From Escherichia coli (GTDB lineage: Bacteria > Pseudomonadota > Gammaproteobacteria > Enterobacterales > Enterobacteriaceae): DNA of 53,280 nucleotides. Of the stretch, positions 12,095 through 42,122 are shown one piece after another (position 1 is the stretch's first letter; each line of letters opens with the position of its first letter). Under the pieces are notes generated by a model. The model worked only from the letters and a program-made list of their open reading frames with translations. It had not been told where the DNA came from and made no database searches. The position numbers were made by a program, and so were the translations under genes. The stretch lies in assembly GCF_003334815.1 (NCBI RefSeq), contig NZ_QOWO01000028.1; one strand, 5' to 3'.

Positions 12095-12102
12095 AATTCG
12101 AA

Positions 12103-12131: not shown

Positions 12132-12184
12132 ATCTGCAGCTCATGAGGATGAGAACCTCCGGGGGCAGGGAGGTTCGACTCGAC

Positions 12185-14480: not shown

Positions 14481-14580
14481 TGCCTGATGCGCTCCGCTTA
14501 TCAGGCCTACGAAAATTCTGCAATGTATTGAATTTGCACGATTTTGTAGGCCGGATAAGGCGTTAACGCCGCATCCGGCA
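14481..14580. repeat. REP/BIME cluster in the dppA-dppB intergenic region
   Basis: TGCCTGATGCGCTCCGCTTATCAGGCCTAC and GTAGGCCGGATAAGGCGTTAACGCCGCATCCGGCA in inverted orientation. Confidence 0.7.
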
Positions 14581-19979: not shown

Positions 19980-20337
19980 AAAGTCCTGTCCAGAAAGAAG
20001 TCGGCCTCGCAAAAATGAATAAACCCAGTTTCTCTTGCGCAACAGGTGGAGAAGTCGAATACGCAGTATGTAAAAAATGAGGCAACAGATTCACTGGGGA
20101 GGTCGCGAGGAGGCGCAATTCTACAAAATTGCGCATTTCACTACCAGTCTGGAGTCAGCCCGGATATGAACTGCAACTATTGCAAATAAAGAAATTAAGC
20201 TGGAAGGCATCGCGCAATGAGGAAGATTGCCGGGTGCTGACAGTAAAAAGCAATCGTAGAATCAGCGGCAAGCCGGAAAGGTTCCGGTGAGGCGCAATGT
20301 TGCGGGGGCTTTATCCCTGGTGGCATTGGTTGCTGGA

Positions 20338-20405
20338 GAGAGAAAACCCCCGCACGTTGCAGGTATGCACCTGACAACACCACGGGGGCTAATCTTGACT
20401 CTAGA
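20338..20405 (-). ncRNA. rdlD: Antisense sRNA RdlD (antitoxin of the ldrD type I toxin-antitoxin pair); coordinates approximate
   Basis: Established ldr/rdl arrangement places an roughly 60-nt antisense RNA upstream of and opposite to ldr. The minus strand here carries a CCCCCG...CGGGGG hairpin followed by a T-tract ending near 20338. Confidence 0.4.
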
Positions 20406-20454
20406 CCACTCAAGAATAGCCGCGAAACGTTGTCATTACAACACAGGCGGCTAT

Positions 20455-20562
20455 ATGACGTTCGCAGAGCTGGGCATGGCCTTCTGGCATGATTTAGCGG
20501 CTCCGGTCATTGCTGGCATTCTTGCCAGTATGATCGTGAACTGGCTGAACAAGCGGAAGTAA
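20455..20562 (+). CDS. ldrD: Type I toxin LdrD (35 aa)
   Basis: Translation MTFAELGMAFWHDLAAPVIAGILASMIVNWLNKRK matches the Ldr toxin family. Confidence 0.85.
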   Translation: MTFAELGMAFWHDLAAPVIAGILASMIVNWLNKRK

Positions 20563-20611
20563 CGTGTCATGCGGGCGTCAGGCTGCCGTAATGGCAATTT
20601 GCGCCCGGACC

Positions 20612-20645
20612 AGGCCGCAGGGGGGAAACTCTGCGGCCTTTTTCG
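20612..20645 (+). terminator. Intrinsic terminator after ldrD
   Basis: AGGCCGCAG-GGGGGAAACT-CTGCGGCCT hairpin followed by TTTT. Confidence 0.55.
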
Positions 20646-20648
20646 TTC

Positions 20649-22328
20649 TTACTGCGGGTAAGGCACCCAGTCGCCGCCGTTCAGGCGAACGTACGGTTTA
20701 TCCTGGTATTGAATAACTACTGCATTTGAGTTCTCGGAGACCGGTGCTGTTTGTGGCAACCCACTGGTGAGTTTTTTCCAGTCAACATTGTCTTCGGTGA
20801 AAATCTTGCCATCGAGAACGCGAACCACCAGATCGGAGATAGCCAGGAAGCTGCTCGGTTGTTCGATGACAATCGGTGCCCCCTGATGCGGTGCCTTCAT
20901 GCCGAAGAATTTCACCCCAACGGGGACGTCGGTGATAGACGGGCTAGGGATATCACGTAGGCCAGATACCTGCATTCTGTCGCCCTTCAGCGCGCCGCCG
21001 TGTTCCGGCACCACGACCACCATCACTTTACGACCCGATTTCTCAAGTTCAGTAAAGAAGGCGTCCAGTTCATCAAAGAATTTCTGCGCCCGCGCTTTGT
21101 AATCCGCTGTTTTGCTGACCCCCGGATAATGGTTGCCGTCATGCAGTGGAAGCGTGTTGTAGAACGTGGCACTACGGCTGTTTTTATCTTTTTCGGTAAC
21201 GTCCAGCCAGCGGTTAAGCACAGCGGTATCGTCATAAACCGGCGAACCATCAAAGCCCAGCAAAATAACCGGCAGATTTGTTTGATCCATCAATTCGCTC
21301 TGCATGCCGCCATTTTCGCGAACTTCTTTCAAAAAACCGCCGAACTGGCCGTTATGTCCCATCATCAGGTGCTGGGTAAAGCCCAGTTTCGAAAGGTTAT
21401 CAAACAGATAGCAGTCGTTATTTGCCGGTTGATACAGATTAGTGTGCGAAGTCTGCCCGCAGCTGGCGCGCAGTAAACGGATCGCCGCCGGGCCACTGTA
21501 GGAGGTGGCGGAGTTAAAGTTCTTGAACTCAATATCGAAATGCGACCACAGTGGATGCGACATCAACCCGGCGGCTTCTATATCCGACCAGGAAAGCGAA
21601 CAGATGTTAATCACCAGTAGTTCAAATGGCTGAGCATCAGCGGGCAGCGAAGACGGGAAGGTCGATTTACGTTTCGCCTCCGCGTTATAGAAATTATTCA
21701 GCCAGGCGTTAAGGTTCGCCGTTGTTGGCGGTGCAGTTTGTGCGGGCATATCACCCACTACCGGTGCGCCACCCGTCGCCGCAACGGTTGCCGCTGCGTT
21801 ACCACCCGTCGTTGTTACAGTGGTCGTCGGTTGTCCGGCTGGCCACAAGGAGAAACTTGGTCCCGCCAGGGTAAGTACGTTCAGCCATAGCAGTATGGCA
21901 ACCACAAAAACGGTAATGCGAATCCATTGTGACAGGAATAACCAGGCCACTAATAAAACAAAAATGGCCCCAATCATCTGCCAGTTAATAAAGCGTGTGA
22001 CAAGGTCGATTAAATAATCGGTACTGAACCCCGCCACCTGCGAACCCTGGCTCATTATGCTTTCCGGGCCAGGCAACCAGGTGTCATGCCAGAACAAAGC
22101 AAAGCCGATCGGCAGGGCAATCCAGTGGCGCAAGCGATGCAGGCTGTAGCGCGGAAGGGGCATCAGCAGAAACGCGGCAAACACCAAATTGAGGAGCGGA
22201 TGGAAGTTAAGATATCCCGCCCACAACAGGCCGAACTTAACCAGAAAATAGAAGTTCCAGCCGGAAAGGCCGCGCCAGTATTGCCAGAGGGAAGAAGGCA
22301 TGGCGGTATTTTGCGTAAATTGAGTCAT
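20649..22328 (-). CDS. bcsG: Cellulose phosphoethanolamine transferase BcsG (559 aa)
   Basis: N-terminal TM region, Thr/Ala/Gly-rich linker, C-terminal alkaline-phosphatase-like domain; last gene of bcsEFG. Confidence 0.92.
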
Positions 22329-22516
22329 TTTTTGGTTGCCCTGGCTTTTTCCGTGCGGCGTAACGTCCCGGCCGGTTTAACATAACGAGGTTTAGCAAAG
22401 AACAAACGTAAGGTGTCGCGAATGCGTCGCAAAGAGTGCCGCGCCAGATAGCCCAGCGGGAAAAATATCAGTGCGCAAACGACAATAATTTCAATGATAT
22501 CGCTGATGGTCATCAT
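22325..22516 (-). CDS. bcsF: Small membrane protein BcsF (63 aa)
   Basis: Single-TM 63-aa peptide with 4-bp overlaps to both bcsE and bcsG. Confidence 0.85.
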
Positions 22517-24084
22517 GATGAGCGCTCCACAGCATCATCTAACAGTCGCATGGGTTCTGGTATTCGTCGCCAGTGGCGACCATCGTGCTCGGCATTGATG
22601 ACCGGTTTAGAACTTTGCGTTAAAGGCAGCGGCATGCCCCATTGTTCTGGGGCAAGCAAGCGCATCTGCACCAGCTCGGCACTGATTTGATCATCTTCAA
22701 ACCAGACCATACGGTTTGAGAAAATGTCGCCAGTAGGCAATGGGAAAATATGATTCAACGCGGTATCCAGATCGTTAATCCGACAGAATGAGAGAAACAG
22801 CACCAGCCGATTACCGCCAATGGTCATGATATCGCCGGTACGGTTAGGGCGACACAGCGTCAGGGCTTGTTCAACGCGGATACCCGGTACCGGACGTAGG
22901 GCAACCAGAACGCCTTTACCGTGGGCAGGTAATAGAGGGTTATTCATCATGTTGTTGACGGCATTACAGAACACATCCCACTTCTGGAAACCACGCAGTT
23001 TGAGCGGCTGGGTCATTGACAGCAAGGTAGTGATATCTTCCGGCACATAGCGACTAAACTTCTGCCCTTGCACGCTTTCGATCATCGTCAGACAACGGGA
23101 GAGTGGCGCATTCCACGGAATAACCATATTTGCACCGCAGGCCAATAACAAACGTTCATCGGTGGCGCGCAGGCTAGCGGTATTTTCCCGCACGAGGATT
23201 TTCATCGCACTACCGCGCTGGCGACGCAGGGTATGAATGCTGCGGGCCAGTGGCTCGATTTGCGCATTTTGCTGTAAAGAAAAGACCACCGTCGCCGCCT
23301 GAGCGGTACGGGCTTCATTGAACAGGACTTCGTTATTGTTGAACAGTTGCCAGTGTTCCGATAGCGGCGGCGCACCTTCCAGTACAGCAACATTACTCAG
23401 AATGCGTTTTTCGTCGCTGCGTGGTTGGATCTCCGCCTCTTCGCTTTGAACTAATGTCCAGATACCATTTTGTTGCTGAACGCTAAGCTGCTGACGGGCG
23501 CTGACCCCTTTTTCGTTGCACCAGAAGGCAATATCCAGCAAATGTTGGTCACCCTGAAAACGCAAACTGGCAAGACCAAAAAGTGAACGGTATTCCTCAA
23601 GCAACAATGAAAATTGTTTATCGTTATTATTTCCGGGATTAATTACCAAAAGCGAACAATGGTTTAACCTGCTCCATTTATTCATTTTATCCAACCATGA
23701 GCGAAGCCGCTCGGCAGGAATGTTTTGCCATGCGTTATTTGCGCAAACAAGAATAAAAAGGTAATTATGGGGATCAATAGAACACTGCAAATCACGGGTC
23801 AAATAGTATAGACCTTTTTCATGATTTAGCATTGAAAATAATTTTATTTTTTCCGGCCCTTGAGAATCATCTAATTGAAAGATTTTCGCCGGATCGCTGT
23901 CCATGCTAATGACCGCGACGTGTGCGGTTTCAGCCTGGGATGCAATTGTTTGATTCGCCAGACTGATAGCATCTTCATGGCGATCGACGTTAAACCACCA
24001 GACGCCGCCTGCTGGCATATGTCGCAGCTCATCCCATAATGATGAGATACCGATAGAGAATACAGGGTCCACAATGTCCCTCAT
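22513..24084 (-). CDS. bcsE: Cellulose biosynthesis protein BcsE (c-di-GMP-binding GIL-domain protein, 523 aa)
   Basis: 523-aa ORF divergent from bcsR; matches recalled BcsE. Confidence 0.92.
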
Positions 24085-24356
24085 GTCACCATTTTGTCTG
24101 ATTATCAGTTTACTAGCGAAAGCTAAGAAATAAACCTACCATTGAAATTAAAACTTATCAGATTTAGCATGTGAATCAATTTAGAAGGTCACAAGACGTG
24201 TGATTTTAGTCTTTTCGTTTTTAACTTTTTCTGTTGCGTAACGGAAAGTCAAAAAGTGAGCAAATTCCCGTCTCGCCGTAAACAATAAACCGGCGAAATG
24301 CTCACGGTTAGAATTGTCTCATGAACGGTACGGTTATTTCATAGGGATCAAGCAAA

Positions 24357-24545
24357 ATGAATAACAATGAACCAGATACTCTGCCTGATCCCGCGATAGG
24401 CTATATCTTCCAGAATGATATTGTGGCGTTAAAGCAGGCATTTTCACTGCCTGATATTGATTATGCCGATATTTCCCAACGCGAACAGTTGGCCGCGGCA
24501 TTAAAACGCTGGCCGTTGCTGGCAGAGTTTGCGCAACAAAAGTAG
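24357..24545 (+). CDS. bcsR: Small cellulose synthesis regulator BcsR (YhjR, 62 aa)
   Basis: 62-aa ORF immediately upstream of bcsQ; TAG stop. Confidence 0.85.
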   Translation: MNNNEPDTLPDPAIGYIFQNDIVALKQAFSLPDIDYADISQREQLAAALKRWPLLAEFAQQK

Positions 24546-24556
24546 GGGATTGGTGA

Positions 24557-25309
24557 ATGGCCGTACTGGGATTGCAGGGGGTGCGGGGAGGCGTGGGGAC
24601 AACAACCATCACCGCCGCATTAGCCTGGTCATTACAAATGTTGGGAGAAAATGTCCTGGTGGTCGATGCCTGCCCGGACAACTTGTTGCGCCTGTCATTT
24701 AATGTTGATTTTACCCACCGTCAGGGCTGGGCCAGAGCGATGCTGGATGGCCAGGACTGGCGTGACGCTGGGTTGCGCTACACCTCGCAGCTCGATTTGC
24801 TGCCTTTTGGTCAGTTATCCATTGAAGAACAAGAAAATCCACAGCACTGGCAAACCCGGCTGAGCGATATTTGCTCCGGCTTACAGCAACTAAAAGCCAG
24901 CGGGCGTTACCAGTGGATTTTAATCGACTTACCGCGTGATGCCTCGCAGATAACCCACCAGCTGCTGAGTTTGTGCGATCACTCGCTGGCAATCGTCAAT
25001 GTGGATGCCAACTGCCATATCCGACTGCATCAGCAAGCGCTGCCGGATGGCGCACATATTTTGATTAATGACTTCCGTATTGGCAGTCAGGTTCAGGACG
25101 ATATTTACCAGCTTTGGTTGCAAAGCCAGCGCCGATTACTGCCGATGCTCATTCATCGTGATGAAGCGATGGCTGAATGCCTGGCGGCTAAGCAACCAGT
25201 AGGTGAATATCGCAGTGATGCGCTGGCGGCTGAAGAGATACTGACGCTGGCGAACTGGTGCCTGTTGAACTACTCCGGGCTGAAAACGCCAGTCGGGAGT
25301 GCATCATGA
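24557..25309 (+). CDS. bcsQ: ParA/MinD-like ATPase BcsQ (250 aa), uninterrupted
   Basis: Deviant Walker A GVRGGVGTTTI; codon 6 is TTG (Leu), so the reading frame is intact; 4-bp overlap with bcsA. Confidence 0.93.
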   Translation: MAVLGLQGVRGGVGTTTITAALAWSLQMLGENVLVVDACPDNLLRLSFNVDFTHRQGWARAMLDGQDWRDAGLRYTSQLDLLPFGQLSIEEQENPQHWQTRLSDICSGLQQLKASGRYQWILIDLPRDASQITHQLLSLCDHSLAIVNVDANCHIRLHQQALPDGAHILINDFRIGSQVQDDIYQLWLQSQRRLLPMLIHRDEAMAECLAAKQPVGEYRSDALAAEEILTLANWCLLNYSGLKTPVGSAS

Positions 25310-27924
25310 GTATCCTGACCCGGTGGTTGCTTATCCCGCCGGTCAACGCGCGGCTTATCGGGCGTTATCGCGATTATCGTCGTCACGGTGCGTCGGCTTT
25401 CAGCGCGACGCTCGGCTGTTTCTGGATGATCCTGGCCTGGATTTTTATTCCGCTGGAGCACCCGCGCTGGCAGCGTATTCGCGCAGAACATAAAAACCTG
25501 TATCCGCATATCAACGCCTCGCGTCCGCGTCCGCTGGACCCGGTCCGTTATCTCATTCAAACATGCTGGTTATTGATCGGTGCATCGCGCAAAGAAACGC
25601 CGAAACCGCGCAGGCGGGCATTTTCAGGTCTGCAAAATATTCGTGGACGTTACCATCAATGGATGAACGAGCTGCCTGAGCGCGTTAGCCATAAAACACA
25701 GCATCTGGATGAGAAAAAAGAGCTCGGTCATTTGAGTGCCGGGGCGCGGCGGTTGATCCTCGGTATCATCGTCACCTTCTCGCTGATTCTGGCGTTAATC
25801 TGCGTTACTCAGCCGTTTAACCCGCTGGCGCAGTTTATCTTCCTGATGCTGCTGTGGGGGGTAGCGCTGATCGTACGGCGGATGCCGGGGCGCTTCTCGG
25901 CGCTAATGTTGATTGTGCTGTCGCTGACCGTTTCTTGCCGTTATATCTGGTGGCGTTACACCTCTACGCTGAACTGGGACGATCCGGTCAGCCTGGTGTG
26001 CGGGCTTATTCTGCTCTTCGCTGAAACGTACGCGTGGATTGTGCTGGTGCTCGGCTACTTCCAGGTAGTATGGCCGCTGAATCGTCAGCCGGTGCCATTG
26101 CCGAAAGATATGTCGCTGTGGCCGTCGGTGGATATCTTTGTCCCGACTTACAACGAAGATCTCAACGTGGTGAAAAATACCATTTACGCCTCGCTGGGTA
26201 TCGACTGGCCGAAAGATAAGCTGAATATCTGGATCCTTGATGACGGCGGCAGGGAAGAGTTTCGCCAGTTTGCGCAAAACGTGGGGGTGAAATATATCGC
26301 CCGCACCACTCATGAACATGCGAAAGCAGGCAACATCAACAATGCGCTGAAATATGCCAAAGGCGAGTTCGTGTCGATTTTCGACTGCGACCACGTACCA
26401 ACGCGATCGTTCTTGCAAATGACCATGGGCTGGTTCCTGAAAGAAAAACAGCTGGCGATGATGCAGACGCCGCACCACTTCTTCTCACCGGACCCGTTTG
26501 AACGCAACCTGGGGCGTTTCCGTAAAACGCCGAACGAAGGCACGCTGTTCTATGGTCTGGTGCAGGATGGCAACGATATGTGGGACGCCACTTTCTTCTG
26601 CGGTTCCTGTGCGGTGATTCGTCGTAAGCCGCTGGATGAAATTGGCGGCATTGCTGTCGAAACCGTGACTGAAGATGCGCATACTTCTCTGCGGTTGCAC
26701 CGTCGTGGCTATACCTCCGCGTATATGCGTATTCCGCAGGCGGCGGGGCTGGCGACCGAAAGTCTGTCGGCGCATATCGGTCAGCGTATTCGCTGGGCGC
26801 GCGGGATGGTACAAATCTTCCGTCTCGATAACCCGCTCACCGGTAAAGGGCTGAAGTTTGCTCAGCGGCTATGTTACGTCAACGCCATGTTCCACTTCTT
26901 GTCGGGCATTCCACGGCTGATCTTCCTGACTGCGCCGCTGGCGTTCCTGCTGCTTCATGCCTACATCATCTATGCGCCAGCGTTGATGATCGCCCTATTC
27001 GTGCTGCCGCATATGATCCATGCCAGCCTGACCAACTCCAAGATCCAGGGCAAATATCGCCACTCTTTCTGGAGTGAAATCTACGAAACGGTGCTGGCGT
27101 GGTATATCGCACCACCGACGCTGGTGGCGCTGATTAACCCGCACAAAGGCAAATTTAACGTCACCGCCAAAGGTGGACTGGTGGAAGAAGAGTACGTCGA
27201 CTGGGTGATCTCGCGGCCCTACATCTTCCTTGTCCTGCTCAACCTGGTGGGCGTTGCGGTAGGCATCTGGCGCTACTTCTATGGCCCGCCAACCGAGATG
27301 CTCACCGTGGTCGTCAGTATGGTGTGGGTGTTCTACAACCTGATTGTTCTTGGCGGCGCAGTTGCGGTATCGGTAGAAAGCAAACAGGTACGCCGATCGC
27401 ACCGCGTGGAGATGACGATGCCCGCGGCAATTGCCCGCGAAGATGGTCACCTCTTCTCGTGTACCGTTCAGGATTTCTCCGACGGTGGTTTGGGGATCAA
27501 GATCAACGGTCAGGCGCAGATTCTGGAAGGGCAGAAAGTGAATCTGTTGCTTAAACGCGGTCAGCAGGAATACGTCTTCCCGACCCAGGTGGCGCGCGTG
27601 ATGGGTAATGAAGTTGGGCTGAAATTAATGCCGCTCACCACCCAGCAACATATCGATTTTGTGCAGTGTACGTTTGCCCGTGCGGATACATGGGCGCTCT
27701 GGCAGGACAGCTACCCGGAAGATAAGCCGCTGGAAAGTCTGCTGGATATTCTGAAGCTCGGCTTCCGTGGCTACCGCCATCTGGCGGAGTTTGCGCCTTC
27801 TTCGGTGAAGGGCATATTCCGTGTGCTGACTTCTCTGGTTTCCTGGGTTGTATCGTTTATTCCGCGCCGCCCGGAGCGGAGCGAAACGGCACAACCATCG
27901 GATCAGGCTTTGGCTCAACAATGA
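25306..27924 (+). CDS. bcsA: Cellulose synthase catalytic subunit BcsA (872 aa)
   Basis: GT-2 motifs including QRIRWARG (QxxRW) and a C-terminal PilZ domain; start trimmed to MSILTRWLL. Confidence 0.97.
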   Translation: MSILTRWLLIPPVNARLIGRYRDYRRHGASAFSATLGCFWMILAWIFIPLEHPRWQRIRAEHKNLYPHINASRPRPLDPVRYLIQTCWLLIGASRKETPKPRRRAFSGLQNIRGRYHQWMNELPERVSHKTQHLDEKKELGHLSAGARRLILGIIVTFSLILALICVTQPFNPLAQFIFLMLLWGVALIVRRMPGRFSALMLIVLSLTVSCRYIWWRYTSTLNWDDPVSLVCGLILLFAETYAWIVLVLGYFQVVWPLNRQPVPLPKDMSLWPSVDIFVPTYNEDLNVVKNTIYASLGIDWPKDKLNIWILDDGGREEFRQFAQNVGVKYIARTTHEHAKAGNINNALKYAKGEFVSIFDCDHVPTRSFLQMTMGWFLKEKQLAMMQTPHHFFSPDPFERNLGRFRKTPNEGTLFYGLVQDGNDMWDATFFCGSCAVIRRKPLDEIGGIAVETVTEDAHTSLRLHRRGYTSAYMRIPQAAGLATESLSAHIGQRIRWARGMVQIFRLDNPLTGKGLKFAQRLCYVNAMFHFLSGIPRLIFLTAPLAFLLLHAYIIYAPALMIALFVLPHMIHASLTNSKIQGKYRHSFWSEIYETVLAWYIAPPTLVALINPHKGKFNVTAKGGLVEEEYVDWVISRPYIFLVLLNLVGVAVGIWRYFYGPPTEMLTVVVSMVWVFYNLIVLGGAVAVSVESKQVRRSHRVEMTMPAAIAREDGHLFSCTVQDFSDGGLGIKINGQAQILEGQKVNLLLKRGQQEYVFPTQVARVMGNEVGLKLMPLTTQQHIDFVQCTFARADTWALWQDSYPEDKPLESLLDILKLGFRGYRHLAEFAPSSVKGIFRVLTSLVSWVVSFIPRRPERSETAQPSDQALAQQ

Positions 27925-27934
27925 TGATAACGCG

Positions 27935-30274
27935 ATGAAAAGAAAACTATTCTGGATTTGTGCAGTGGCTATGGGGATGAGTGCGTTCCCCTCTTTCATG
28001 ACGCAGGCGACGCCAGCAACGCAACCACTGATCAATGCTGAGCCAGCTGTAGCCGCCCAGACGGAACAAAATCCGCAGGTGGGGCAAGTGATGCCGGGCG
28101 TGCAGGGCGCTGATGCGCCAGTCGTGGCGCAGAACGGTCCTTCGCGTGATGTGAAGCTGACCTTTGCGCAAATTGCACCGCCGCCGGGCAGCATGGTGCT
28201 ACGTGGCATTAACCCGAACGGCAGCATTGAGTTTGGTATGCGCAGCGATGAAGTGGTGACGAAGGCGATGCTCAACCTCGAATACACCCCATCGCCATCG
28301 TTACTGCCTGTCCAGTCGCAGTTAAAGGTTTATCTCAATGATGAACTGATGGGCGTGCTGCCAGTGACCAAAGAACAGTTGGGTAAAAAAACGCTGGCGC
28401 AAATGCCCATTAACCCACTGTTTATTACCGACTTCAACCGTGTACGGCTGGAGTTTGTCGGCCATTATCAGGACGTGTGCGAAAACCCGGCCAGCACCAC
28501 GCTTTGGCTGGATGTTGGGCGGAGCAGTGGACTGGATCTGACCTATCAGACCCTGAATGTGAAGAATGACCTGTCACACTTCCCGGTGCCATTCTTTGAC
28601 CCGCGCGATAACCGCACCAACACCTTGCCGATGGTCTTTGCGGGTGCGCCGGATGTTGGGCTGCAACAAGCCTCTGCCATTGTCGCCTCGTGGTTTGGTT
28701 CGCGTTCTGGCTGGCGTGGGCAGAACTTCCCGGTACTCTATAACCAACTGCCGGATCGCAATGCCATTGTCTTTGCAACCAACGACAAACGGCCGGACTT
28801 CCTGCGCGATCATCCGGCGGTAAAAGCCCCGGTGATTGAGATGATTAACCATCCGCAGAATCCTTACGTCAAACTGCTGGTGGTGTTTGGTCGTGACGAC
28901 AAAGACCTGTTGCAGGCAGCGAAAGGTATCGCTCAGGGTAACATTCTGTTCCGTGGTGAAAGCGTGGTAGTGAATGAAGTGAAACCGCTGCTACCGCGTA
29001 AGCCGTACGATGCGCCGAACTGGGTACGTACCGATCGTCCGGTTACATTTGGCGAACTGAAAACCTATGAAGAACAGTTACAATCCAGCGGTCTTGAGCC
29101 AGCAGCGATTAACGTTTCGCTAAACCTGCCGCCGGATCTCTACCTGATGCGCAGTACCGGCATTGATATGGATATTAATTACCGCTACACCATGCCGCCG
29201 GTGAAAGACAGTTCGCGGATGGATATCAGCCTGAATAACCAGTTCCTGCAATCCTTCAACCTGAGCAGCAAACAGGAGGCGAACCGCCTGCTGCTGCGGA
29301 TTCCGGTATTACAAGGTTTGCTGGATGGCAAAACAGATGTCTCTATTCCGGCGCTGAAACTGGGCGCGACCAACCAGCTGCGCTTCGACTTTGAGTATAT
29401 GAACCCGATGCCGGGCGGTTCGGTGGATAACTGTATTACCTTCCAGCCGGTGCAGAATCATGTGGTGATTGGTGACGACTCCACCATCGACTTCTCGAAG
29501 TATTACCACTTCATCCCGATGCCGGATCTACGCGCCTTTGCTAACGCGGGCTTCCCATTCAGCCGGATGGCGGATCTGTCGCAAACCATCACCGTGATGC
29601 CGAAAGCGCCTAACGAAGCACAGATGGAAACGTTGCTGAATACTGTTGGTTTTATCGGCGCACAGACGGGCTTCCCGGCGATTAATCTGACGGTGACCGA
29701 TGATGGCAGCACCATTCAGGGCAAAGATGCCGACATCATGATCATCGGTGGTATCCCGGACAAACTGAAAGACGATAAGCAGATCGACCTATTGGTGCAG
29801 GCGACCGAAAGCTGGGTGAAAACACCGATGCGCCAGACCCCGTTCCCCGGCATTGTGCCGGACGAGAGCGATCGCGCGGCAGAAACCCGGTCAACGCTGA
29901 CCTCTTCCGGTGCGATGGCGGCGGTGATTGGCTTCCAGTCGCCGTATAACGACCAGCGCAGCGTGATTGCGCTGTTGGCAGATAGCCCACGCGGTTATGA
30001 AATGCTTAACGATGCGGTGAACGATAGCGGCAAACGCGCCACCATGTTCGGTTCGGTCGCGGTGATCCGCGAGTCCGGTATCAACAGCCTACGTGTTGGC
30101 GACGTTTATTACGTAGGTCATCTGCCGTGGTTCGAGCGCGTGTGGTATGCGCTGGCAAACCATCCGATTCTGCTGGCGGTGCTGGCGGCTATCAGTGTGA
30201 TATTGCTGGCATGGGTACTGTGGCGTCTGCTGCGAATTATTAGTCGTCGTCGTCTTAACCCGGATAACGAGTAA
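27935..30274 (+). CDS. bcsB: Cellulose synthase periplasmic subunit BcsB (779 aa)
   Basis: Signal peptide MKRKLFWICAVAMGMSAF and a C-terminal TM anchor; start trimmed from the track ORF. Confidence 0.95.
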   Translation: MKRKLFWICAVAMGMSAFPSFMTQATPATQPLINAEPAVAAQTEQNPQVGQVMPGVQGADAPVVAQNGPSRDVKLTFAQIAPPPGSMVLRGINPNGSIEFGMRSDEVVTKAMLNLEYTPSPSLLPVQSQLKVYLNDELMGVLPVTKEQLGKKTLAQMPINPLFITDFNRVRLEFVGHYQDVCENPASTTLWLDVGRSSGLDLTYQTLNVKNDLSHFPVPFFDPRDNRTNTLPMVFAGAPDVGLQQASAIVASWFGSRSGWRGQNFPVLYNQLPDRNAIVFATNDKRPDFLRDHPAVKAPVIEMINHPQNPYVKLLVVFGRDDKDLLQAAKGIAQGNILFRGESVVVNEVKPLLPRKPYDAPNWVRTDRPVTFGELKTYEEQLQSSGLEPAAINVSLNLPPDLYLMRSTGIDMDINYRYTMPPVKDSSRMDISLNNQFLQSFNLSSKQEANRLLLRIPVLQGLLDGKTDVSIPALKLGATNQLRFDFEYMNPMPGGSVDNCITFQPVQNHVVIGDDSTIDFSKYYHFIPMPDLRAFANAGFPFSRMADLSQTITVMPKAPNEAQMETLLNTVGFIGAQTGFPAINLTVTDDGSTIQGKDADIMIIGGIPDKLKDDKQIDLLVQATESWVKTPMRQTPFPGIVPDESDRAAETRSTLTSSGAMAAVIGFQSPYNDQRSVIALLADSPRGYEMLNDAVNDSGKRATMFGSVAVIRESGINSLRVGDVYYVGHLPWFERVWYALANHPILLAVLAAISVILLAWVLWRLLRIISRRRLNPDNE

Positions 30275-30280
30275 TTGAAG

Positions 30281-31387
30281 ATGAATGTGTTGCGTAGTGG
30301 AATCGTGACGATGCTGCTGCTGGCTGCCTTTAGTGTTCAGGCAGCCTGTACCTGGCCTGCCTGGGAGCAGTTTAAAAAGGATTACATCAGTCAGGAAGGG
30401 CGCGTCATCGACCCCAGCGACGCGCGCAAAATCACCACCTCCGAAGGGCAAAGTTACGGCATGTTCTCTGCCCTGGCGGCTAACGACCGTGCAGCTTTCG
30501 ATAATATTCTCGACTGGACGCAGAACAATCTCGCTCAGGGTTCTTTAAAAGAACGTTTGCCCGCCTGGCTGTGGGGCAAGAAAGAGAACAGTAAGTGGGA
30601 AGTGCTGGACAGCAATTCGGCCTCCGATGGTGATGTCTGGATGGCCTGGTCGTTGCTGGAGGCGGGGCGTTTGTGGAAAGAGCAGCGTTATACCGACATC
30701 GGCAGCGCGTTGCTAAAACGTATCGCGCGGGAGGAAGTGGTGACGGTGCCTGGGCTGGGTTCCATGTTGTTACCGGGCAAAGTGGGTTTTGCTGAGGATA
30801 ACAGCTGGCGTTTTAACCCCAGCTACCTGCCGCCGACGCTGGCGCAGTATTTCACCCGCTTTGGCGCGCCGTGGACCACGCTGCGCGAAACCAATCAACG
30901 TTTATTGCTGGAAACCGCCCCGAAAGGTTTTTCGCCAGACTGGGTGCGCTATGAGAAAGACAAAGGCTGGCAGCTAAAAGCCGAAAAAACATTGATCAGC
31001 AGCTACGACGCTATCCGCGTTTACATGTGGGTAGGCATGATGCCTGACAGCGATCCGCAAAAAGCGCGGATGCTCAACCGGTTTAAACCGATGGCGACAT
31101 TCACTGAGAAAAACGGTTATCCGCCGGAAAAAGTGGATGTGGCTACGGGGAAAGCGCAGGGTAAAGGACCAGTCGGTTTTTCTGCCGCCATGCTGCCCTT
31201 TTTACAAAACCGCGATGCGCAGGCCGTTCAGCGCCAGCGCGTGGCCGATAACTTTCCCGGCAGCGATGCCTATTACAACTATGTGCTGACCCTGTTTGGA
31301 CAAGGCTGGGATCAACACCGTTTCCGCTTCTCGACAAAAGGTGAGTTATTACCTGACTGGGGCCAGGAATGCGCAAATTCACACTAA
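30281..31387 (+). CDS. bcsZ: Endo-1,4-beta-glucanase BcsZ (GH8, 368 aa)
   Basis: Signal peptide followed by a GH8-like domain; start at MNVLRSG. Confidence 0.93.
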
Positions 31388-34300
31388 ACATATTCACGCT
31401 TTCCCTCGGTCTGGCCGTCATGCCGATGGTCGAGGCAGCACCAACCGCTCAGCAACAGTTGCTGGAGCAAGTTCGGTTAGGCGAAGCGACCCATCGTGAA
31501 GATCTGGTGCAACAGTCGTTATATCGGCTGGAACTTATTGATCCGAATAACCCGGACGTCGTTGCCGCCCGTTTCCGTTCTTTGTTACGTCAGGGCGATA
31601 TTGATGGCGCGCAAAAACAGCTCGATCGGCTGTCGCAGTTAGCGCCGAGTTCAAATGCGTATAAATCGTCGCGGACTACGATGCTACTTTCCACGCCGGA
31701 TGGTCGTCAGGCACTGCAACAGGCACGATTGCAGGCGACGACCGGTCATGCAGAAGAAGCTGTGGCGAGTTACAACAAACTGTTCAACGGTGCGCCGCCG
31801 GAAGGTGACATTGCTGTCGAGTACTGGAGTACGGTGGCGAAAATTCCGGCTCGCCGTGGCGAAGCGATTAATCAGTTAAAACGCATCAATGCGGATGCAC
31901 CGGGCAATACGGGCCTGCAAAACAATCTGGCGCTATTGCTGTTTAGTAGCGATCGCCGTGACGAAGGTTTTGCCGTCCTGGAACAGATGGCAAAATCGAA
32001 CGCCGGGCGCGAAGGGGCCTCTAAAATCTGGTACGGGCAGATTAAAGACATGCCCGTCAGTGATGCCAGTGTGTCGGCGCTGAAAAAATATCTCTCGATC
32101 TTTAGTGATGGCGATAGCGTGGCGGCTGCGCAATCGCAACTGGCAGAACAGCAAAAACAGCTGGCCGATCCTGCTTTCCGCGCTCGTGCGCAAGGTTTAG
32201 CGGCGGTGGACTCTGGTATGGCGGGTAAAGCCATTCCCGAACTACAACAGGCGGTGCGGGCGAACCCGAAAGACAGTGAAGCTCTGGGGGCGCTGGGCCA
32301 GGCGTATTCTCAGAAAGGCGATCGCGCCAATGCAGTGGCGAATCTGGAAAAAGCCCTCGCACTGGACCCGCACAGCAGCAACAACGACAAATGGAACAGT
32401 CTGCTGAAAGTAAACCGCTACTGGCTGGCGATCCAGCAGGGCGATGCTGCGCTGAAAGCCAATAATCCTGACCGGGCAGAACGCCTGTTCCAGCAGGCGC
32501 GTAATGTCGATAACACCGACAGTTATGCAGTGCTGGGGCTGGGCGATGTGGCGATGGCGCGAAAAGATTATCCCGCCGCCGAACGTTATTATCAGCAGAC
32601 CTTGCGTATGGACAGCGGCAACACTAACGCCGTGCGCGGGCTGGCAAATATTTACCGCCAGCAATCGCCAGAAAAAGCTGAAGCGTTTATCGCCTCGCTC
32701 TCTGCCAGTCAGCGGCGTAGCATTGATGATATCGAACGCAGCCTGCAAAACGACCGTCTGGCACAGCAGGCAGAGGCACTGGAAAACCAGGGCAAATGGG
32801 CGCAGGCGGCAGCACTTCAGCGGCAACGACTGGCGCTGGACCCCGGCAGCGTATGGATTACTTACCGACTTTCGCAGGATCTCTGGCAGGCCGGACAACG
32901 CAGCCAGGCCGATACGTTAATGCGCAATCTGGCGCAGCAGAAGTCGAACGACCCGGAGCAGGTTTACGCTTACGGGCTGTACCTCTCTGGTCATGACCAG
33001 GACAGAGCGGCGCTGGCGCATATCAACAGCCTGCCGCGTGCGCAGTGGAACAGCAATATTCAGGAGCTGGTTAATCGACTGCAAAGCGATCAGGTGCTGG
33101 AAACCGCTAACCGCCTGCGAGAAAGCGGCAAAGAGGCAGAAGCGGAAGCGATGCTGCGCCAGCAACCACCTTCCACGCGTATTGACCTCACGCTGGCTGA
33201 CTGGGCGCAACAACGACGTGATTACACCGCCGCCCGCGCTGCATATCAGAATGTCCTGACGCGGGAGCCAGCTAACGCCGACGCCATTCTTGGTCTGACG
33301 GAAGTGGATATTGCTGCCGGTGACAAAGCGGCGGCACGTAGCCAGCTGGCGAAACTGCCCGCTACCGATAACGCCTCGCTGAACACACAGCGGCGCGTGG
33401 CGCTGGCACAGGCGCAGCTTGGCGATACCGCAGCAGCGCAGCGGACGTTTAATAAGTTGATCCCGCAGGCAAAATCTCAGCCACCGTCGATGGAAAGCGC
33501 GATGGTGCTGCGTGATGGTGCGAAGTTTGAAGCGCAGGCGGGCGATCCAACGCAGGCGCTGGAAACCTACAAAGACGCCATGGTCGCATCCGGTGTGACT
33601 ACGACGCGTCCGCAGGATAACGACACCTTTACCCGACTGACCCGTAACGACGAGAAAGATGACTGGCTGAAACGTGGCGTGCGCAGCGATGCGGCGGACC
33701 TCTATCGCCAGCAGGATCTTAACGTCACCCTTGAGCACGATTACTGGGGTTCGAGCGGCACCGGTGGTTACTCCGATCTGAAAGCGCACACTACCATGTT
33801 GCAGGTGGATGCGCCGTATTCTGACGGGCGGATGTTCTTTCGCAGTGATTTCGTCAATATGAACGTCGGCAGTTTCTCCACTAATGCCGATGGCAAATGG
33901 GATGACAACTGGGGCACCTGTACATTACAGGACTGTAGCGGCAACCGCAGCCAGTCGGATTCCGGTGCCAGCGTGGCGGTCGGCTGGCGAAATGACGTCT
34001 GGAGCTGGGATATCGGTACCACGCCGATGGGCTTCAACGTGGTGGATGTGGTCGGCGGCATCAGTTACAGCGATGATATCGGGCCGCTGGGTTACACCGT
34101 TAACGCCCACCGTCGGCCCATCTCCAGTTCTTTGCTGGCCTTTGGTGGGCAAAAAGACTCCCCGAGCAATACCGGGAAAAAATGGGGTGGCGTACGTGCC
34201 GACGGTGTGGGGCTAAGTCTGAGCTACGATAAAGGTGAAGCAAACGGCGTCTGGGCATCGCTTAGTGGCGACCAGTTAACCGGTAAAAATGTCGAAGATA

Positions 34301-34842
34301 ACTGGCGCGTGCGCTGGATGACGGGCTATTACTATAAGGTCATTAACCAGAACAATCGCCGCGTCACAATCGGCCTGAACAACATGATCTGGCATTACGA
34401 CAAAGATCTGAGTGGCTACTCACTCGGTCAGGGCGGTTACTACAGTCCGCAGGAATACCTGTCGTTTGCCATACCGGTGATGTGGCGGGAGCGCACGGAA
34501 AACTGGTCGTGGGAGCTGGGTGCGTCTGGCTCGTGGTCGCATTCACGCACCAAAACCATGCCGCGTTATCCGCTGATGAATCTGATCCCGACCGACTGGC
34601 AGGAAGAAGCTGCGCGGCAATCCAACGATGGCGGCAGCAGTCAGGGCTTCGGCTACACGGCGCGGGCATTACTTGAACGACGTGTTACTTCCAACTGGTT
34701 TGTTGGCACGGCAATTGATATCCAGCAGGCGAAAGATTACGCACCCAGCCATTTCCTGCTCTACGTACGTTATTCCGCCGCCGGATGGCAGGGTGACATG
34801 GATTTACCGCCGCAGCCGCTGATACCTTACGCCGACTGGTAA
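31369..34842 (+). CDS. bcsC: Cellulose synthase outer-membrane/TPR subunit BcsC (1157 aa)
   Basis: Signal peptide, long TPR-rich region, C-terminal beta-barrel ending in W; 19-bp overlap with bcsZ. Confidence 0.95.
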
Positions 34843-34923
34843 GTTTTCAGATAGCGCCTCTCTTAATGCCGCTGCGATCGGGTATACTCGGGCGGCAATC
34901 TGGGATTTCCGGGGGGAGACAAT

Positions 34924-36912
34924 TTGCGCGTAAGTCGCTCGTTAACAATCAAGCAGATGGCAATGGTGGCAGCCGTTGTCCTGGTGTTCGTTTTTATTTT
35001 TTGCACCGTTTTGCTGTTCCATCTGGTCCAGCAGAATCGCTATAACACGGCTACGCAACTGGAAAGCATTGCTCGCTCTGTCCGCGAACCCTTATCTTCA
35101 GCTATTTTGAAAGGCGATATTCCCGAAGCGGAAGCTATTCTTGCCAGCATTAAACCGGCAGGCGTGGTCAGCCGTGCCGATGTAGTGCTGCCTAACCAGT
35201 TCCAGGCGCTGCGTAAAAGTTTTATTCCAGAGCGCCCGGTGCCGGTAATGGTTACTCGCCTGTTTGAGCTACCGGTTCAAATCTCGCTGGGCGTTTACTC
35301 GCTCGAACGTCCGGCAAACCCGCAGCCAATTGCCTATCTGGTACTACAGGCGGATTCCTTCCGTATGTATAAGTTCGTGATGAGCACCCTCTCAACGTTA
35401 GTGACCATTTACTTACTTTTGTCGCTTATCCTGACCGTCGCCATCAGCTGGTGCATTAACCGCCTGATTTTGCATCCGTTACGCAATATTGCTCGCGAAC
35501 TTAACGCCATCCCAGCCAAGGAGCTTGTTGGTCACCAACTGGCATTACCGCGTCTGCATCAGGACGATGAAATCGGTATGTTGGTGCGCAGTTACAACCT
35601 CAACCAGCAATTGCTGCAGCGCCATTATGAAGAACAGAACGAAAATGCGATGCGCTTCCCGGTGTCGGATTTGCCGAACAAAGCCTTGCTGATGGAGATG
35701 CTGGAGCAGGTTGTCGCGCGTAAACAAACCACCGCGCTGATGATCATCACCTGTGAAACCCTGCGTGATACTGCGGGCGTGCTGAAAGAGGCGCAACGAG
35801 AAATTCTGCTGCTGACGCTGGTGGAAAAACTCAAATCGGTACTGTCGCCACGTATGATCCTCGCGCAGATTAGCGGTTATGACTTTGCTGTCATTGCCAA
35901 CGGTGTACAGGAACCGTGGCACGCAATCACCTTAGGTCAGCAAGTGCTCACTATCATGAGCGAGCGCCTGCCGATTGAACGTATTCAACTCCGTCCGCAC
36001 TGTAGCATTGGCGTGGCGATGTTCTACGGCGATCTCACCGCCGAACAGCTTTACAGTCGCGCTATTTCTGCGGCATTTACCGCTCGCCATAAAGGCAAGA
36101 ATCAGATTCAGTTCTTTGATCCGCAGCAGATGGAAGCCGCCCAGAAGCGGTTGACGGAAGAGAGCGATATCCTTAATGCACTGGAAAATCATCAGTTTGC
36201 TATTTGGTTACAGCCACAGGTCGAGATGACCAGCGGTAAACTGGTCAGTGCGGAAGTGTTACTGCGTATCCAGCAACCGGATGGCAGTTGGGACCTGCCG
36301 GATGGCTTAATCGATCGCATTGAGTGCTGTGGGCTGATGGTTACCGTCGGTCACTGGGTGCTGGAAGAGTCCTGTCGATTGCTTGCAGCCTGGCAAGAGC
36401 GCGGCATTATGCTGCCCTTGTCGGTAAACCTCTCTGCGCTGCAACTGATGCACCCGAATATGGTGGCGGATATGCTGGAACTGTTAACCCGCTATCGCAT
36501 TCAGCCGGGAACACTGATTCTGGAAGTGACAGAAAGCCGACGTATTGACGACCCTCATGCTGCGGTGGCAATCCTCCGTCCGCTGCGCAATGCCGGAGTT
36601 CGGATGGCGCTGGATGATTTCGGCATGGGCTACGCAGGGCTGCGTCAGCTGCAGCATATGAAATCGTTGCCAATCGACGTACTGAAAATCGACAAAATGT
36701 TTGTTGAAGGCTTGCCGGGAGATAGCAGCATGATTGCTGCAATTATCATGCTGGCGCAGAGCCTGAACTTACAAATGATTGCCGAAGGCGTGGAGACTGA
36801 AGCACAACGCGACTGGCTGGCAAAAGCGGGCGTTGGTATTGCCCAGGGCTTCCTTTTTGCTCGCCCACTCCCTATTGAAATCTTCGAAGAGAGTTACCTG
36901 GAAGAAAAGTAG
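34924..36912 (+). CDS. pdeK: c-di-GMP phosphodiesterase PdeK (YhjK; HAMP-GGDEF-EAL, 662 aa)
   Basis: Two N-terminal TM segments, a degenerate GGDEF region and an EAL domain; apparent TTG start. Confidence 0.85.
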
Positions 36913-37058
36913 CTACCCCAAACTGATTACAAAACTTTAAAAAGTGCTGGTTTGTGCGAGCCAGCTCAAACTTTTTAACCTTTTTGTTTCAATTATGATC
37001 CAGGTACATTTCTGTGATGTTGTCTGGGTGTTATTTTAAGGCCGCAGGTACCCCATAA

Positions 37059-38381
<1,323 letters not shown>

Positions 38382-38394
38382 TCTCATCACTTAT

Positions 38395-38426
38395 GCCCGC
38401 ACTCCCTTCCCCGAGTGCGGGTGTTT
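38395..38426 (+). terminator. Intrinsic terminator after dctA
   Basis: GCCCGCACTC-CCTTCCCC-GAGTGCGGGT hairpin followed by GTTT. Confidence 0.6.
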
Positions 38427-38601
38427 GCGCATAATTGACCCCTGTGCCTGAACTTACCACCTGGGTGAGTTCAGGTTTATTTCACTTCTTCCGTGACATT
38501 TTCATGTTCTTGCGGTCTAACACGAAGTGTTTTTAACGTCATTTAGACTGACCGACAACGGGCAGTTTTTTTATTACCAGGATAGTTGATCAGGGGTTCA
38601 C

Positions 38602-40098
38602 ATGCAGGGCACAAAAATTCGACTTTTAGCGGGCGGTTTGCTGATGATGGCCACTGCTGGCTATGTGCAGGCAGATGCGCTCCAGCCTGATCCAGCATGG
38701 CAACAGGGGACGCTTTCCAACGGTTTACAGTGGCAAGTGCTGACCACCCCCCAGCGTCCCAGCGATCGTGTTGAAATTCGCCTGCTGGTTAATACCGGTT
38801 CGCTCGCCGAAAGTACACAACAGAGCGGTTACAGTCACGCCATCCCTCGTATTGCGCTAACGCAAAGCGGTGGCCTTGACGCAGCACAGGCGCGTTCATT
38901 GTGGCAGCAGGGGATCGACCCTAAACGCCCGATGCCGCCGGTAATTGTCTCTTATGACACCACGCTGTTTAATCTGAGTTTGCCCAATAACCGTAACGAT
39001 TTGCTGAAAGAAGCGCTCTCTTATCTGGCAAATGCCACTGGCAAATTGACCATCACACCAGAAACCATCAACCACGCGCTGCAAAGTCAGGACATGGTGG
39101 CAACCTGGCCTGCCGATACTAAAGAGGGCTGGTGGCGCTATCGTCTGAAAGGGTCAACCTTGTTAGGTCACGATCCTGCCGATCCGCTGAAACAACCCGT
39201 TGAAGCGGAAAAAATTAAAGATTTCTATCAGAAATGGTACACCCCGGATGCAATGACGCTACTGGTGGTGGGAAACGTGGATGCGCGCTCGGTTGTCGAC
39301 CAAATAAACAAAACGTTTGGCGAACTGAAAGGCAAACGTGAAACGCCAGCTCCGGTGCCGACGCTTTCTCCGCTGCGTGCGGAAGCGGTGAGTATTATGA
39401 CTGACGCGGTGCGTCAGGACCGGTTATCTATCATGTGGGATACGCCGTGGCAGCCGATTCGTGAATCAGCCGCACTGCTGCGCTACTGGCGTGCGGACCT
39501 GGCCCGCGAGGCGCTGTTCTGGCATGTTCAGCAAGCGTTAAGTGCCAGTAACAGCAAAGACATCGGTCTTGGATTTGACTGCCGTGTGCTGTATCTGCGT
39601 GCGCAGTGTGCCATCAACATCGAATCACCAAACGACAAGCTGAACAGCAACCTTAATCTGGTGGCGCGTGAACTGGCGAAGGTTCGCGATAAAGGTCTGC
39701 CGGAAGAAGAGTTCAATGCGTTAGTGGCGCAAAAGAAACTGGAGCTGCAGAAACTGTTTGCCGCCTATGCACGAGCTGATACCGATATTCTGATGGGTCA
39801 GCGGATGCGTTCGTTGCAAAATCAGGTTGTCGATATCGCGCCGGAGCAATATCAGAAACTGCGGCAGGATTTCCTTAATAGCCTGACGGTAGAGATGTTA
39901 AATCAGGATCTGCGTCAACAGTTGTCGAATGATATGGCGTTAATACTGCTGCAGCCGAAAGGCGAGCCGGAATTTAACATGAAAGCGTTGCAGGCGGTCT
40001 GGGATCAAATCATGGCCCCATCTACCGCCGCTGCGACCACCTCTGTCGCCACGGATGACGTACATCCTGAAGTGACGGATATTCCACCTGCACAGTAA
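38602..40098 (+). CDS. yhjJ: M16-family peptidase-like periplasmic protein YhjJ (498 aa)
   Basis: Signal peptide plus 498-aa pitrilysin-like fold; position after dctA. Confidence 0.85.
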   Translation: MQGTKIRLLAGGLLMMATAGYVQADALQPDPAWQQGTLSNGLQWQVLTTPQRPSDRVEIRLLVNTGSLAESTQQSGYSHAIPRIALTQSGGLDAAQARSLWQQGIDPKRPMPPVIVSYDTTLFNLSLPNNRNDLLKEALSYLANATGKLTITPETINHALQSQDMVATWPADTKEGWWRYRLKGSTLLGHDPADPLKQPVEAEKIKDFYQKWYTPDAMTLLVVGNVDARSVVDQINKTFGELKGKRETPAPVPTLSPLRAEAVSIMTDAVRQDRLSIMWDTPWQPIRESAALLRYWRADLAREALFWHVQQALSASNSKDIGLGFDCRVLYLRAQCAINIESPNDKLNSNLNLVARELAKVRDKGLPEEEFNALVAQKKLELQKLFAAYARADTDILMGQRMRSLQNQVVDIAPEQYQKLRQDFLNSLTVEMLNQDLRQQLSNDMALILLQPKGEPEFNMKALQAVWDQIMAPSTAAATTSVATDDVHPEVTDIPPAQ

Positions 40099-41354: not shown

Positions 41355-42122
41355 ATGATAAGGCAGGTTATCCAGCGAATAAGCAACCCTGAAGCAAGCA
41401 TCGAGAGCTTGCAGGAACGGCGTTTTTGGTTGCAGTGTGAGCGTGCTTACACCTGGCAGCCGATCTATCAAACATGCGGGCGGTTAATGGCCGTGGAGCT
41501 ATTAACGGTGGTCACGCATCCCTTGAACCCTTCGCAACGCCTGCCGCCGGATCGCTATTTTACTGAAATCACCGTCAGCCATCGGATGGAGGTTGTGAAA
41601 GAGCAGATTGATTTGCTGGCGCAAAAAGCCGACTTCTTTATAGAGCACGGCCTGCTGGCATCGGTCAATATTGATGGCCCTACGCTCATCGCCCTGCGTC
41701 AGCAACCAAAAATCCTGCGCCAGATTGAGCGTCTTCCCTGGCTGCGTTTCGAACTGGTGGAGCATATCCGTCTGCCGAAAGATTCAACCTTTGCCTCGAT
41801 GTGTGAATTTGGCCCGCTGTGGCTGGATGATTTTGGTACCGGGATGGCAAATTTCTCTGCGCTAAGTGAAGTGCGTTATGACTACATCAAAATCGCGCGA
41901 GAACTGTTTGTGATGCTGCGTCAGTCGCCGGAAGGACGCACACTCTTTTCTCAGCTTTTACATCTAATGAATCGCTATTGTCGCGGGGTGATTGTCGAGG
42001 GCGTAGAAACGCCGGAAGAGTGGCGTGATGTTCAGAACTCGCCCGCATTCGCCGCACAAGGCTGGTTTCTTTCACGCCCGGCACCGATAGAAACGCTGAA
42101 TACGGCGGTTCTGGCGCTATAA
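41355..42122 (+). CDS. pdeH: c-di-GMP phosphodiesterase PdeH (YhjH, EAL domain, 255 aa)
   Basis: Stand-alone EAL-domain protein (ELLTVVTHP...); start trimmed to MIRQVIQRIS. Confidence 0.92.
   Translation: MIRQVIQRISNPEASIESLQERRFWLQCERAYTWQPIYQTCGRLMAVELLTVVTHPLNPSQRLPPDRYFTEITVSHRMEVVKEQIDLLAQKADFFIEHGLLASVNIDGPTLIALRQQPKILRQIERLPWLRFELVEHIRLPKDSTFASMCEFGPLWLDDFGTGMANFSALSEVRYDYIKIARELFVMLRQSPEGRTLFSQLLHLMNRYCRGVIVEGVETPEEWRDVQNSPAFAAQGWFLSRPAPIETLNTAVLAL

Follow-up and report, generated by a model that had tools for sequence, protein, structure and literature searches.

The 53,280-nucleotide stretch of Escherichia coli DNA analysed here (the window) very probably holds an intact and ordinary E. 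coli phosphoethanolamine (pEtN)-cellulose synthesis and export locus, of cellulose-proficient genotype, lying beside the gene for its known partner, the c-di-GMP phosphodiesterase PdeK. A sequence-only reading had described nine full-length bcs genes with bcsGFE divergent from bcsRQABZC, and the open reading frames, the annotation and the NCBIfam matches all agree with that arrangement and with its coordinates (Table 1). The ORF boundaries coincide with the RefSeq annotation of the near-identical strain RM10410, every gene has the length of its K-12 reference gene, and no internal stop was found in the ORF translations of any gene of the locus.

Table 1. Genes and intergenic region of the cellulose locus and its c-di-GMP phosphodiesterase neighbours, in window positions.
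Feature	Position	Strand	Length	Product or role
bcsG	20649-22328	-	559 aa	phosphoethanolamine transferase modifying nascent cellulose
bcsF	22325-22516	-	63 aa	small membrane subunit
bcsE	22513-24084	-	523 aa	c-di-GMP-binding regulator
bcsE/bcsR divergent intergenic region	24085-24356		272 bp	promoter region
bcsR (yhjR)	24357-24545	+	62 aa	BcsQ partner
bcsQ	24557-25309	+	250 aa	SIMIBI-type ATPase, intact
bcsA	25306-27924	+	872 aa	c-di-GMP-activated processive cellulose synthase
bcsB	27935-30274	+	779 aa	periplasmic co-catalytic subunit
bcsZ	30281-31387	+	368 aa	periplasmic GH8 endoglucanase
bcsC	31369-34842	+	1157 aa	TPR and outer-membrane beta-barrel export subunit
pdeK (hmsP/yhjK)	34924-36912	+	662 aa (from the annotated TTG start)	membrane c-di-GMP phosphodiesterase
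pdeH (yhjH)	41355-42122	+	255 aa	EAL-only c-di-GMP phosphodiesterase

The gene content and order are those of a Type II system. The plus strand carries bcsA, bcsB, bcsZ and bcsC side by side, all four encoding full-length NCBIfam equivalogs; bcsR and bcsQ head this synthase operon, both scoring above the NCBIfam cut-offs; and bcsE, bcsF and bcsG form a divergent minus-strand operon 272 bp from bcsR. The tight or overlapping junctions reported earlier were seen when all nine were measured, with spacings of -19 to 11 nt within the operons up to bcsC: bcsF overlaps both bcsG and bcsE by 4 nt each, bcsQ and bcsA overlap by 4 nt, bcsC overlaps bcsZ by 19 nt, and the remaining gaps are 11 nt (bcsR/bcsQ), 10 nt (bcsA/bcsB) and 6 nt (bcsB/bcsZ). 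The gene directly downstream of bcsC, after 81 bp, is pdeK, in which Pfam found both the GGDEF and the EAL domain. The EAL-only gene pdeH, placed a few kb further on by the same reading, begins 4,442 bp past the pdeK stop, with dctA, yhjJ and kdgK in between. It is annotated in both RM10410 and K-12, its product is identical to K-12 PdeH and carries the motifs ELL48, DDFGTG158 and EGVE215, and it is a neighbour outside the bcs operons.

Scans for regulatory signals between positions 20000 and 38000 were uninformative, with 9 consensus promoter sites (13.7 expected by chance) and 23 terminator-like sites (20.1 expected). Rfam gave no match inside the bcs locus, the nearest being rdlD, just outside. 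The bcsE-bcsR intergenic region has no SNP relative to K-12 MG1655.

All ten proteins (the nine Bcs proteins and PdeK) gave full-model NCBIfam equivalog matches above the curated cut-offs, and for BcsA, BcsB, BcsC, BcsE, BcsG, BcsQ and BcsZ a solved structure of an E. coli Bcs protein matches the whole or the mature protein. BcsA matched NF008558 over residues 1-872 of 872 (1794 bits) and PDB 9fmv_A over residues 1-872, with Pfam GT2 and PilZ domains at 277-447 and 694-790. The residues of a GT2 synthase, namely D, DxD, TED, QxxRW, FFCGS and the gating-loop FxVTxK, were all found (DDG312, HAKAGN338, DCD360, FFCGS430, TED455, QRIRW493 and FNVTAK617), as were the c-di-GMP-binding motifs of PilZ, RRSHR696 (RxxxR) and DFSDGG723 (DxSxxG); the PilZ and gating-loop motifs are as defined in PMC8892547. 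BcsB scored 1386 bits against NF008325 (cut-off 922) and matched PDB 6yg8_A over residues 1-779. BcsZ scored 591 bits against NF008305 (cut-off 299) and matched PDB 3qxf and 9b87; it retains E55 and D243, which are reported to be its catalytic residues in the 3QXF work. BcsC matched NF008520 over residues 1-1157 of 1157 (2199 bits), Pfam TPR repeats and BCSC_C (802-1136), and PDB 9b8a_A and 6tzk_A.

The accessory proteins gave the same picture. BcsR scored 75 bits against NF040717 (cut-off 46), and BcsQ matched NF007460 over residues 1-250 of 250 (543 bits) and PDB 6ybu_A over residues 1-250. BcsF matched the full TIGR03493 model (116 bits, cut-off 56). BcsE matched NF011619 over residues 1-523 of 523 (1190 bits) as well as PDB 9fnn_E, 6tj0 and 6ybb, and its I-site motifs (RxxD, in the REC* and GGDEF* modules) are present as R306ATD and R415TGD. 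BcsG scored 817 bits against TIGR03368 (cut-off 410), with residues 24-554 corresponding to Pfam CBP_BcsG and residues 1-559 matching PDB 9b8v_B. The nucleophile of BcsG is Ser278, and its Zn ligands are C243, S278, E442 and H443 (PMC11379886; PMC8892547). A residue check found all of C243, Y277, S278, C290, C306, H396, E442, H443 and R458, and so the nucleophile, the Zn ligands C243, E442 and H443, the cysteines of the C290-C306 disulfide, Y277 and R458, whose roles are described in PMC8892547 and PMC11379886, are in place. No catalytic or ligand-binding motif that was looked for in BcsA, BcsG, BcsE, BcsZ or the EAL domain of PdeK was missing, and the Pfam architectures of BcsA, BcsC, BcsG and PdeK fit. 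A search for hidden frameshifts or inactivating substitutions against reference Bcs proteins was negative, in keeping with the earlier view of the locus as undisrupted, and nothing in the sequence speaks against its being intact.

Across positions 17542-53280 (about 36 kb) the window differs from K-12 by seven SNPs: one in bcsQ codon 6, three giving BcsB S165T, K184N and S224R, one giving PdeK V561M, and two that are synonymous (bcsB V370 and bcsC N553). Gene order, gene lengths, junctions and intergenic sequences are shared with the bcs locus of MG1655 (b3529-b3538, NC_000913.3), and of the nine Bcs proteins seven (BcsG, F, E, R, A, Z and C) match at every residue. With so close a resemblance, the window might be supposed to carry the K-12-type locus, made cellulose-negative by a bcsQ nonsense mutation polar on bcsA. 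The probability of this is practically nil, as codon 6 directly excludes it: K-12 has the stop TAG there, its bcsQ is annotated as a pseudogene and the strain is cellulose-negative, whereas the window has TTG (Leu) in a BcsQ that is otherwise identical. A 61-mer of the TTG type is found exactly in 3,552 genomes. In AR3110, which is W3110 with bcsQ codon 6 changed from TAG to TTG, cellulose production was restored (PMC7397504). It is above all codon 6 that distinguishes this locus from its cellulose-negative K-12 counterpart, and because it is a sense codon here we read the locus as cellulose-proficient by genotype, free of the defect of laboratory K-12.

AR3110 and the commensal E. coli 1094 likewise possess all nine genes of the Type II system intact, with a sense codon at position 6 of bcsQ (PMC7397504; PMC8892547). 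Both strains serve as experimental models in work on pEtN-cellulose and the Bcs macrocomplex, and the likeness to them is one of gene content; AR3110, a direct derivative of W3110, should have the BcsB allele of K-12, unlike the window. Structures 6yg8, 9fmv, 9fnn and 6ybu correspond to proteins encoded in the window. RM10410 has two mismatches in window positions 20000-40000, an intact BcsQ and the same BcsB protein (WP_000823624.1), its bcsB differing at a synonymous site alone. The 237-bp segment of bcsB that holds the three substitution sites is found exactly in natural isolates, and 1,301 genomes carry it at 99% identity or more. We therefore rejected the idea that S165T, K184N and S224R are damaging, since the protein is shared with RM10410 and the segment is common in natural isolates. 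What sets the window apart from RM10410 and the other complete genomes is T at 29044, a synonymous change in bcsB absent from all 5,426 complete E. coli genomes searched, and A at 36604, which gives PdeK V561M.

PdeK scored 780 bits against NF008807 (cut-off 733) and has the Pfam architecture GAPES3-HAMP-GGDEF-EAL, with a degenerate GGDEF signature (SGYDF) and an EAL signature that reads EVL. The motifs EVL444, DDFGMG564 and EGVE621-624 are present. Column statistics were taken from 166 aligned EAL domain segments from 150 representative relatives. PdeK agrees with the consensus of these segments at E444, L446, R448, E467, N502, E534, E537, D564, D565, K588, E621, E624 and Q641, and it keeps 38 of the 40 positions whose conservation reaches 85% or more; the two departures, I449 and L462, also occur in the active K-12 PdeK. 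For the K-12 allele of PdeK (V561), phosphodiesterase activity has been shown, and the protein, which interacts with both BcsB and DgcC, serves as a local sink (PMC7397504).

None of the complete E. coli genomes containing the segment, 5,424 in all, has the base responsible for V561M, and residue 561 belongs to the strand that runs into D564 and D565, three positions ahead of the metal-binding DDFG motif. Both observations would fit a substitution that weakens or abolishes the phosphodiesterase activity, so that the local c-di-GMP sink is lost and cellulose output rises. We consider such an effect very improbable. Column 561 is a variable hydrophobic one (L79, I43, V24, F12, M4 among the 166 segments), and inactivation of PdeK is unlikely because related EAL domains also use Met at this site. 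The strongly conserved catalytic residues are all kept, even a complete pdeK deletion has only a weak phenotype (PMC7397504), and the co-occurrence of a private synonymous SNP in bcsB fits ordinary strain-level drift. Still less probable is that V561M measurably changes the local c-di-GMP sink at the cellulose synthase and is an adaptive adjustment of how much cellulose this lineage makes.

On a working model drawn from characterised identical proteins, BcsA with BcsB would convert UDP-glucose to beta-1,4-glucan when c-di-GMP binds the PilZ domain of BcsA. BcsR, BcsQ, BcsE and BcsF would serve in the assembly and regulation of the inner-membrane macrocomplex, with BcsE providing additional c-di-GMP binding. 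BcsG, through Ser278, would modify the nascent chain with phosphoethanolamine taken from phosphatidylethanolamine, BcsZ would trim the glucan in the periplasm and BcsC would carry the polymer out through the outer membrane. PdeK would act as a membrane phosphodiesterase docked on BcsB, forming a local c-di-GMP sink.

Cellulose production by the source strain depends on CsgD, RpoS and DgcC, which are encoded outside the 53-kb window, and DgcC is specifically required for activation of the synthase (PMC7397504). The window runs from hokA/cspA to ccp/gadA and contains none of csgD, rpoS, mlrA and dgcC. An intact locus may be phenotypically silent where one of these four genes is defective or unexpressed, a condition common among E. 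coli isolates; for this strain we regard silence as unlikely. Nothing within the window points to silencing, and the matter is a caveat on phenotype, not an alternative reading of the sequence. Because csgD, rpoS and dgcC lie outside, actual cellulose output is not deducible from the window, and the reading of an intact, cellulose-proficient locus is one of genotype.

The bcs locus is near-universal in E. coli, with 5,296 of 5,426 complete genomes holding at least 80% of window positions 20000-40000 in one place. The system is a textbook one, already known and present in nearly every E. coli genome, and the initial judgement that the architecture is known and not novel is upheld. Beyond annotation, the importance of the finding is small. 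The source strain is nearly identical to K-12 across the window yet lacks the bcsQ nonsense mutation, and it would be expected from its genotype to be cellulose-proficient; the state of bcsQ would matter if the strain were to serve in biofilm studies or be set against laboratory K-12.

The phosphoethanolamine (pEtN)-cellulose locus at 20649-36912 is intact. Gene positions were taken from the ORF list and from the RefSeq annotation of the near-identical natural isolate RM10410, which agreed, and 20649 and 36912 coincide with the stops of bcsG and pdeK. The sequence-only reading had described nine bcs genes, bcsGFE divergent from bcsRQABZC, followed directly by pdeK with pdeH a few kb further on, and this layout was borne out. 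The junctions from bcsG to bcsC measured -4, -4, 272 (the divergent region), 11, -4, 10, 6 and -19 bp, pdeK followed bcsC after 81 bp, and in the RM10410 annotation pdeH lies 4,442 bp past pdeK, beyond dctA, yhjJ and kdgK. The window is E. coli chromosome: each of the 5,426 complete E. coli genomes matched positions 20000-40000, and 5,296 carried at least 80% of the segment in one place. As the earlier reading had also held, the locus is already known and its architecture is not novel. A scan for promoters and terminators gave a result no better than chance.

Features and SNPs in the window (bcs genes and pdeK from the ORF list and RM10410 RefSeq annotation; SNPs relative to K-12)
Feature	Position	Strand	Detail
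cspA thermoregulator 5' UTR	394-821	-	Rfam, 501 bits
naRNA4 (CssrE)	12188-12267		Rfam; directly downstream of RtT-type repeat
ES036 (CssrF) sRNA	14503-14545	-	Rfam
rdlD antisense RNA	20341-20406	-	Rfam RF01813, 87 bits
ldrD toxin ORF	20455-20562	+	
bcsG	20649-22328	-	
bcsF	22325-22516	-	
bcsE	22513-24084	-	
bcsR	24357-24545	+	
bcsQ	24557-25309	+	
bcsA	25306-27924	+	
bcsB	27935-30274	+	
bcsZ	30281-31387	+	
bcsC	31369-34842	+	
pdeK/hmsP	34924-36912	+	
pdeH	41355-42122		
SNP, bcsQ codon 6	24573		window TTG (Leu), K-12 TAG (stop)
SNP, bcsB codon 165	28428		window Thr, K-12 Ser
SNP, bcsB codon 184	28486		window Asn, K-12 Lys
SNP, bcsB codon 224	28604		window Arg, K-12 Ser
SNP, bcsB V370	29044		synonymous; window GTT, K-12 GTC
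SNP, bcsC N553	33027		synonymous; window AAC, K-12 AAT
SNP, pdeK codon 561	36604		window Met, K-12 Val

The genes had been called full length and undisrupted, and each protein agreed with this. All ten matched NCBIfam equivalogs along essentially the full model length, with scores exceeding the curated cut-offs (BcsA, NF008558, 1-872/872; BcsC, NF008520, 1-1157/1157; BcsE, NF011619, 1-523/523; BcsQ, NF007460, 1-250/250), translation of the bcs genes and pdeK found no internal stops, and gene lengths equalled those of K-12 MG1655. The expected Pfam domains were found in BcsA (GT2 and PilZ), BcsC (TPR repeats and BCSC_C), BcsG (CBP_BcsG) and PdeK (GAPES3, HAMP, GGDEF and EAL). Solved E. coli structures matched BcsA, B, C, E, G, Q and Z across the whole or mature protein. 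Every residue was as in K-12 in BcsG, BcsF, BcsE, BcsR, BcsA, BcsZ and BcsC, and likewise in DctA, YhjJ, KdgK, PdeH and LdrD.

The check proposed earlier for BcsA and the BcsG serine found all motifs in place. BcsA carries the motifs DDG312, HAKAGN338, DCD360, FFCGS430, TED455 and QRIRW493; its gating loop has FNVTAK617 and its PilZ domain RRSHR696 and DFSDGG723, with motifs as defined in PMC8892547. BcsG retains C243, Y277, S278, C290, C306, H396, E442, H443 and R458, the roles of which are described in PMC8892547 and PMC11379886. BcsE has R306ATD and R415TGD. In BcsZ, E55 and D243 are present, which we take to be the catalytic residues. The GGDEF site of PdeK is degenerate (SGYDF), and its EAL motifs EVL444, DDFGMG564 and EGVE621-624 are present.

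Base-by-base comparison of 17542-45542 with NC_000913.3 and of 22000-53280 with a second MG1655 assembly showed only seven SNPs across 17542-53280, all within 24573-36604. The important one is bcsQ codon 6: strain AR3110 is described as W3110 with exactly this TAG to TTG change, by which it is cellulose-proficient (PMC7397504), and the TTG-type 61-mer was exact in 3,552 complete genomes. The bcsB segment with three substitutions is widespread among natural isolates, and RM10410 has the same BcsB protein as the window. These three changes are non-synonymous transversions inside 177 bp. The seven SNPs cluster in 12 kb from bcsQ to pdeK, with zero in the ~24 kb of flanks compared; recombination over a short patch could explain this, as could selection having relaxed in K-12 once bcsQ was lost. 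K-12 bcsQ is marked as a pseudogene in NC_000913.3, whereas at 2582-3310 of the locus taken from the K-12 MG1655 record NZ_CP032667.1 the NCBI pipeline calls an N-terminally shortened CDS (WP_011310329.1) that begins past the TAG, so the K-12 defect can go unseen in automated annotation.

Two of the SNPs, at 36604 and 29044, are transitions. A 61-mer with either site at its centre had zero exact matches in the 5,426 complete genomes, each match carrying at least one mismatch; both alleles are thus either genuine SNPs private to the source lineage or sequencing errors. In an alignment of the PdeK EAL domain with 166 domain segments, drawn from 150 representative relatives, 40 positions are conserved at 85% or more. 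PdeK agrees with the consensus at 38 of them (among others E444, R448, E467, N502, E534, E537, D564, D565, K588, E621, E624 and Q641), and its two departures, I449 and L462, are common to K-12 PdeK, for which phosphodiesterase activity has been demonstrated in vitro (PMC7397504). Residue 561, three positions ahead of the metal-binding DD of the DDFG motif, is a variable hydrophobic column (L79, I43, V24, F12, M4), in which Met is a conservative, naturally occurring replacement. V561M is unlikely to inactivate PdeK, and removing pdeK entirely has only a weak effect on phenotype (PMC7397504). Where translation of pdeK starts is uncertain (34924-34965): RefSeq uses the TTG at 34924 (662 aa), the numbering of Richter et al. 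2020 (E431, V432, E611) fits 649 aa from the codon-14 ATG (34963), and codon 12 is another ATG.

Outside the operons, a type I toxin-antitoxin pair (ldrD/rdlD, 20341-20562) lies between yhjV and the bcsG 3' end, and the bcsG stop is separated by 9 bp from a strong hairpin terminator (20612-20639). Directly 3' of tRNA-Pro (12018-12091), at ~12076-12183, the window has one 168-bp RtT-type tandem-repeat unit fewer than the K-12 derivative J53; the repeat follows proK, and two BLAST blocks against J53 overlap by 108 bp. The sole SNP in 1-12183 is at 2178 (T versus A in J53). The cold-shock gene under the 394-821 match is called cspE in the J53 record, apparently an inconsistency in naming.

From characterised identical proteins (PMC7397504, PMC11379886, PMC8892547), we infer that c-di-GMP made by DgcC would bind the BcsA PilZ domain and open the gating loop, with BcsA and BcsB polymerising and translocating the glucan. 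BcsG would transfer pEtN from phosphatidylethanolamine to the glucan through a Ser278 intermediate, BcsE, BcsF, BcsR and BcsQ would assemble and regulate the macrocomplex, and BcsZ and BcsC would serve periplasmic trimming and outer-membrane export. PdeK would dock on BcsB and DgcC and act as a local c-di-GMP sink, and PdeH, a neighbour outside the operons, would be a general phosphodiesterase. Because csgD, dgcC and rpoS lie outside the window, the cellulose phenotype is not deducible from it; the locus itself has the cellulose-proficient genotype.
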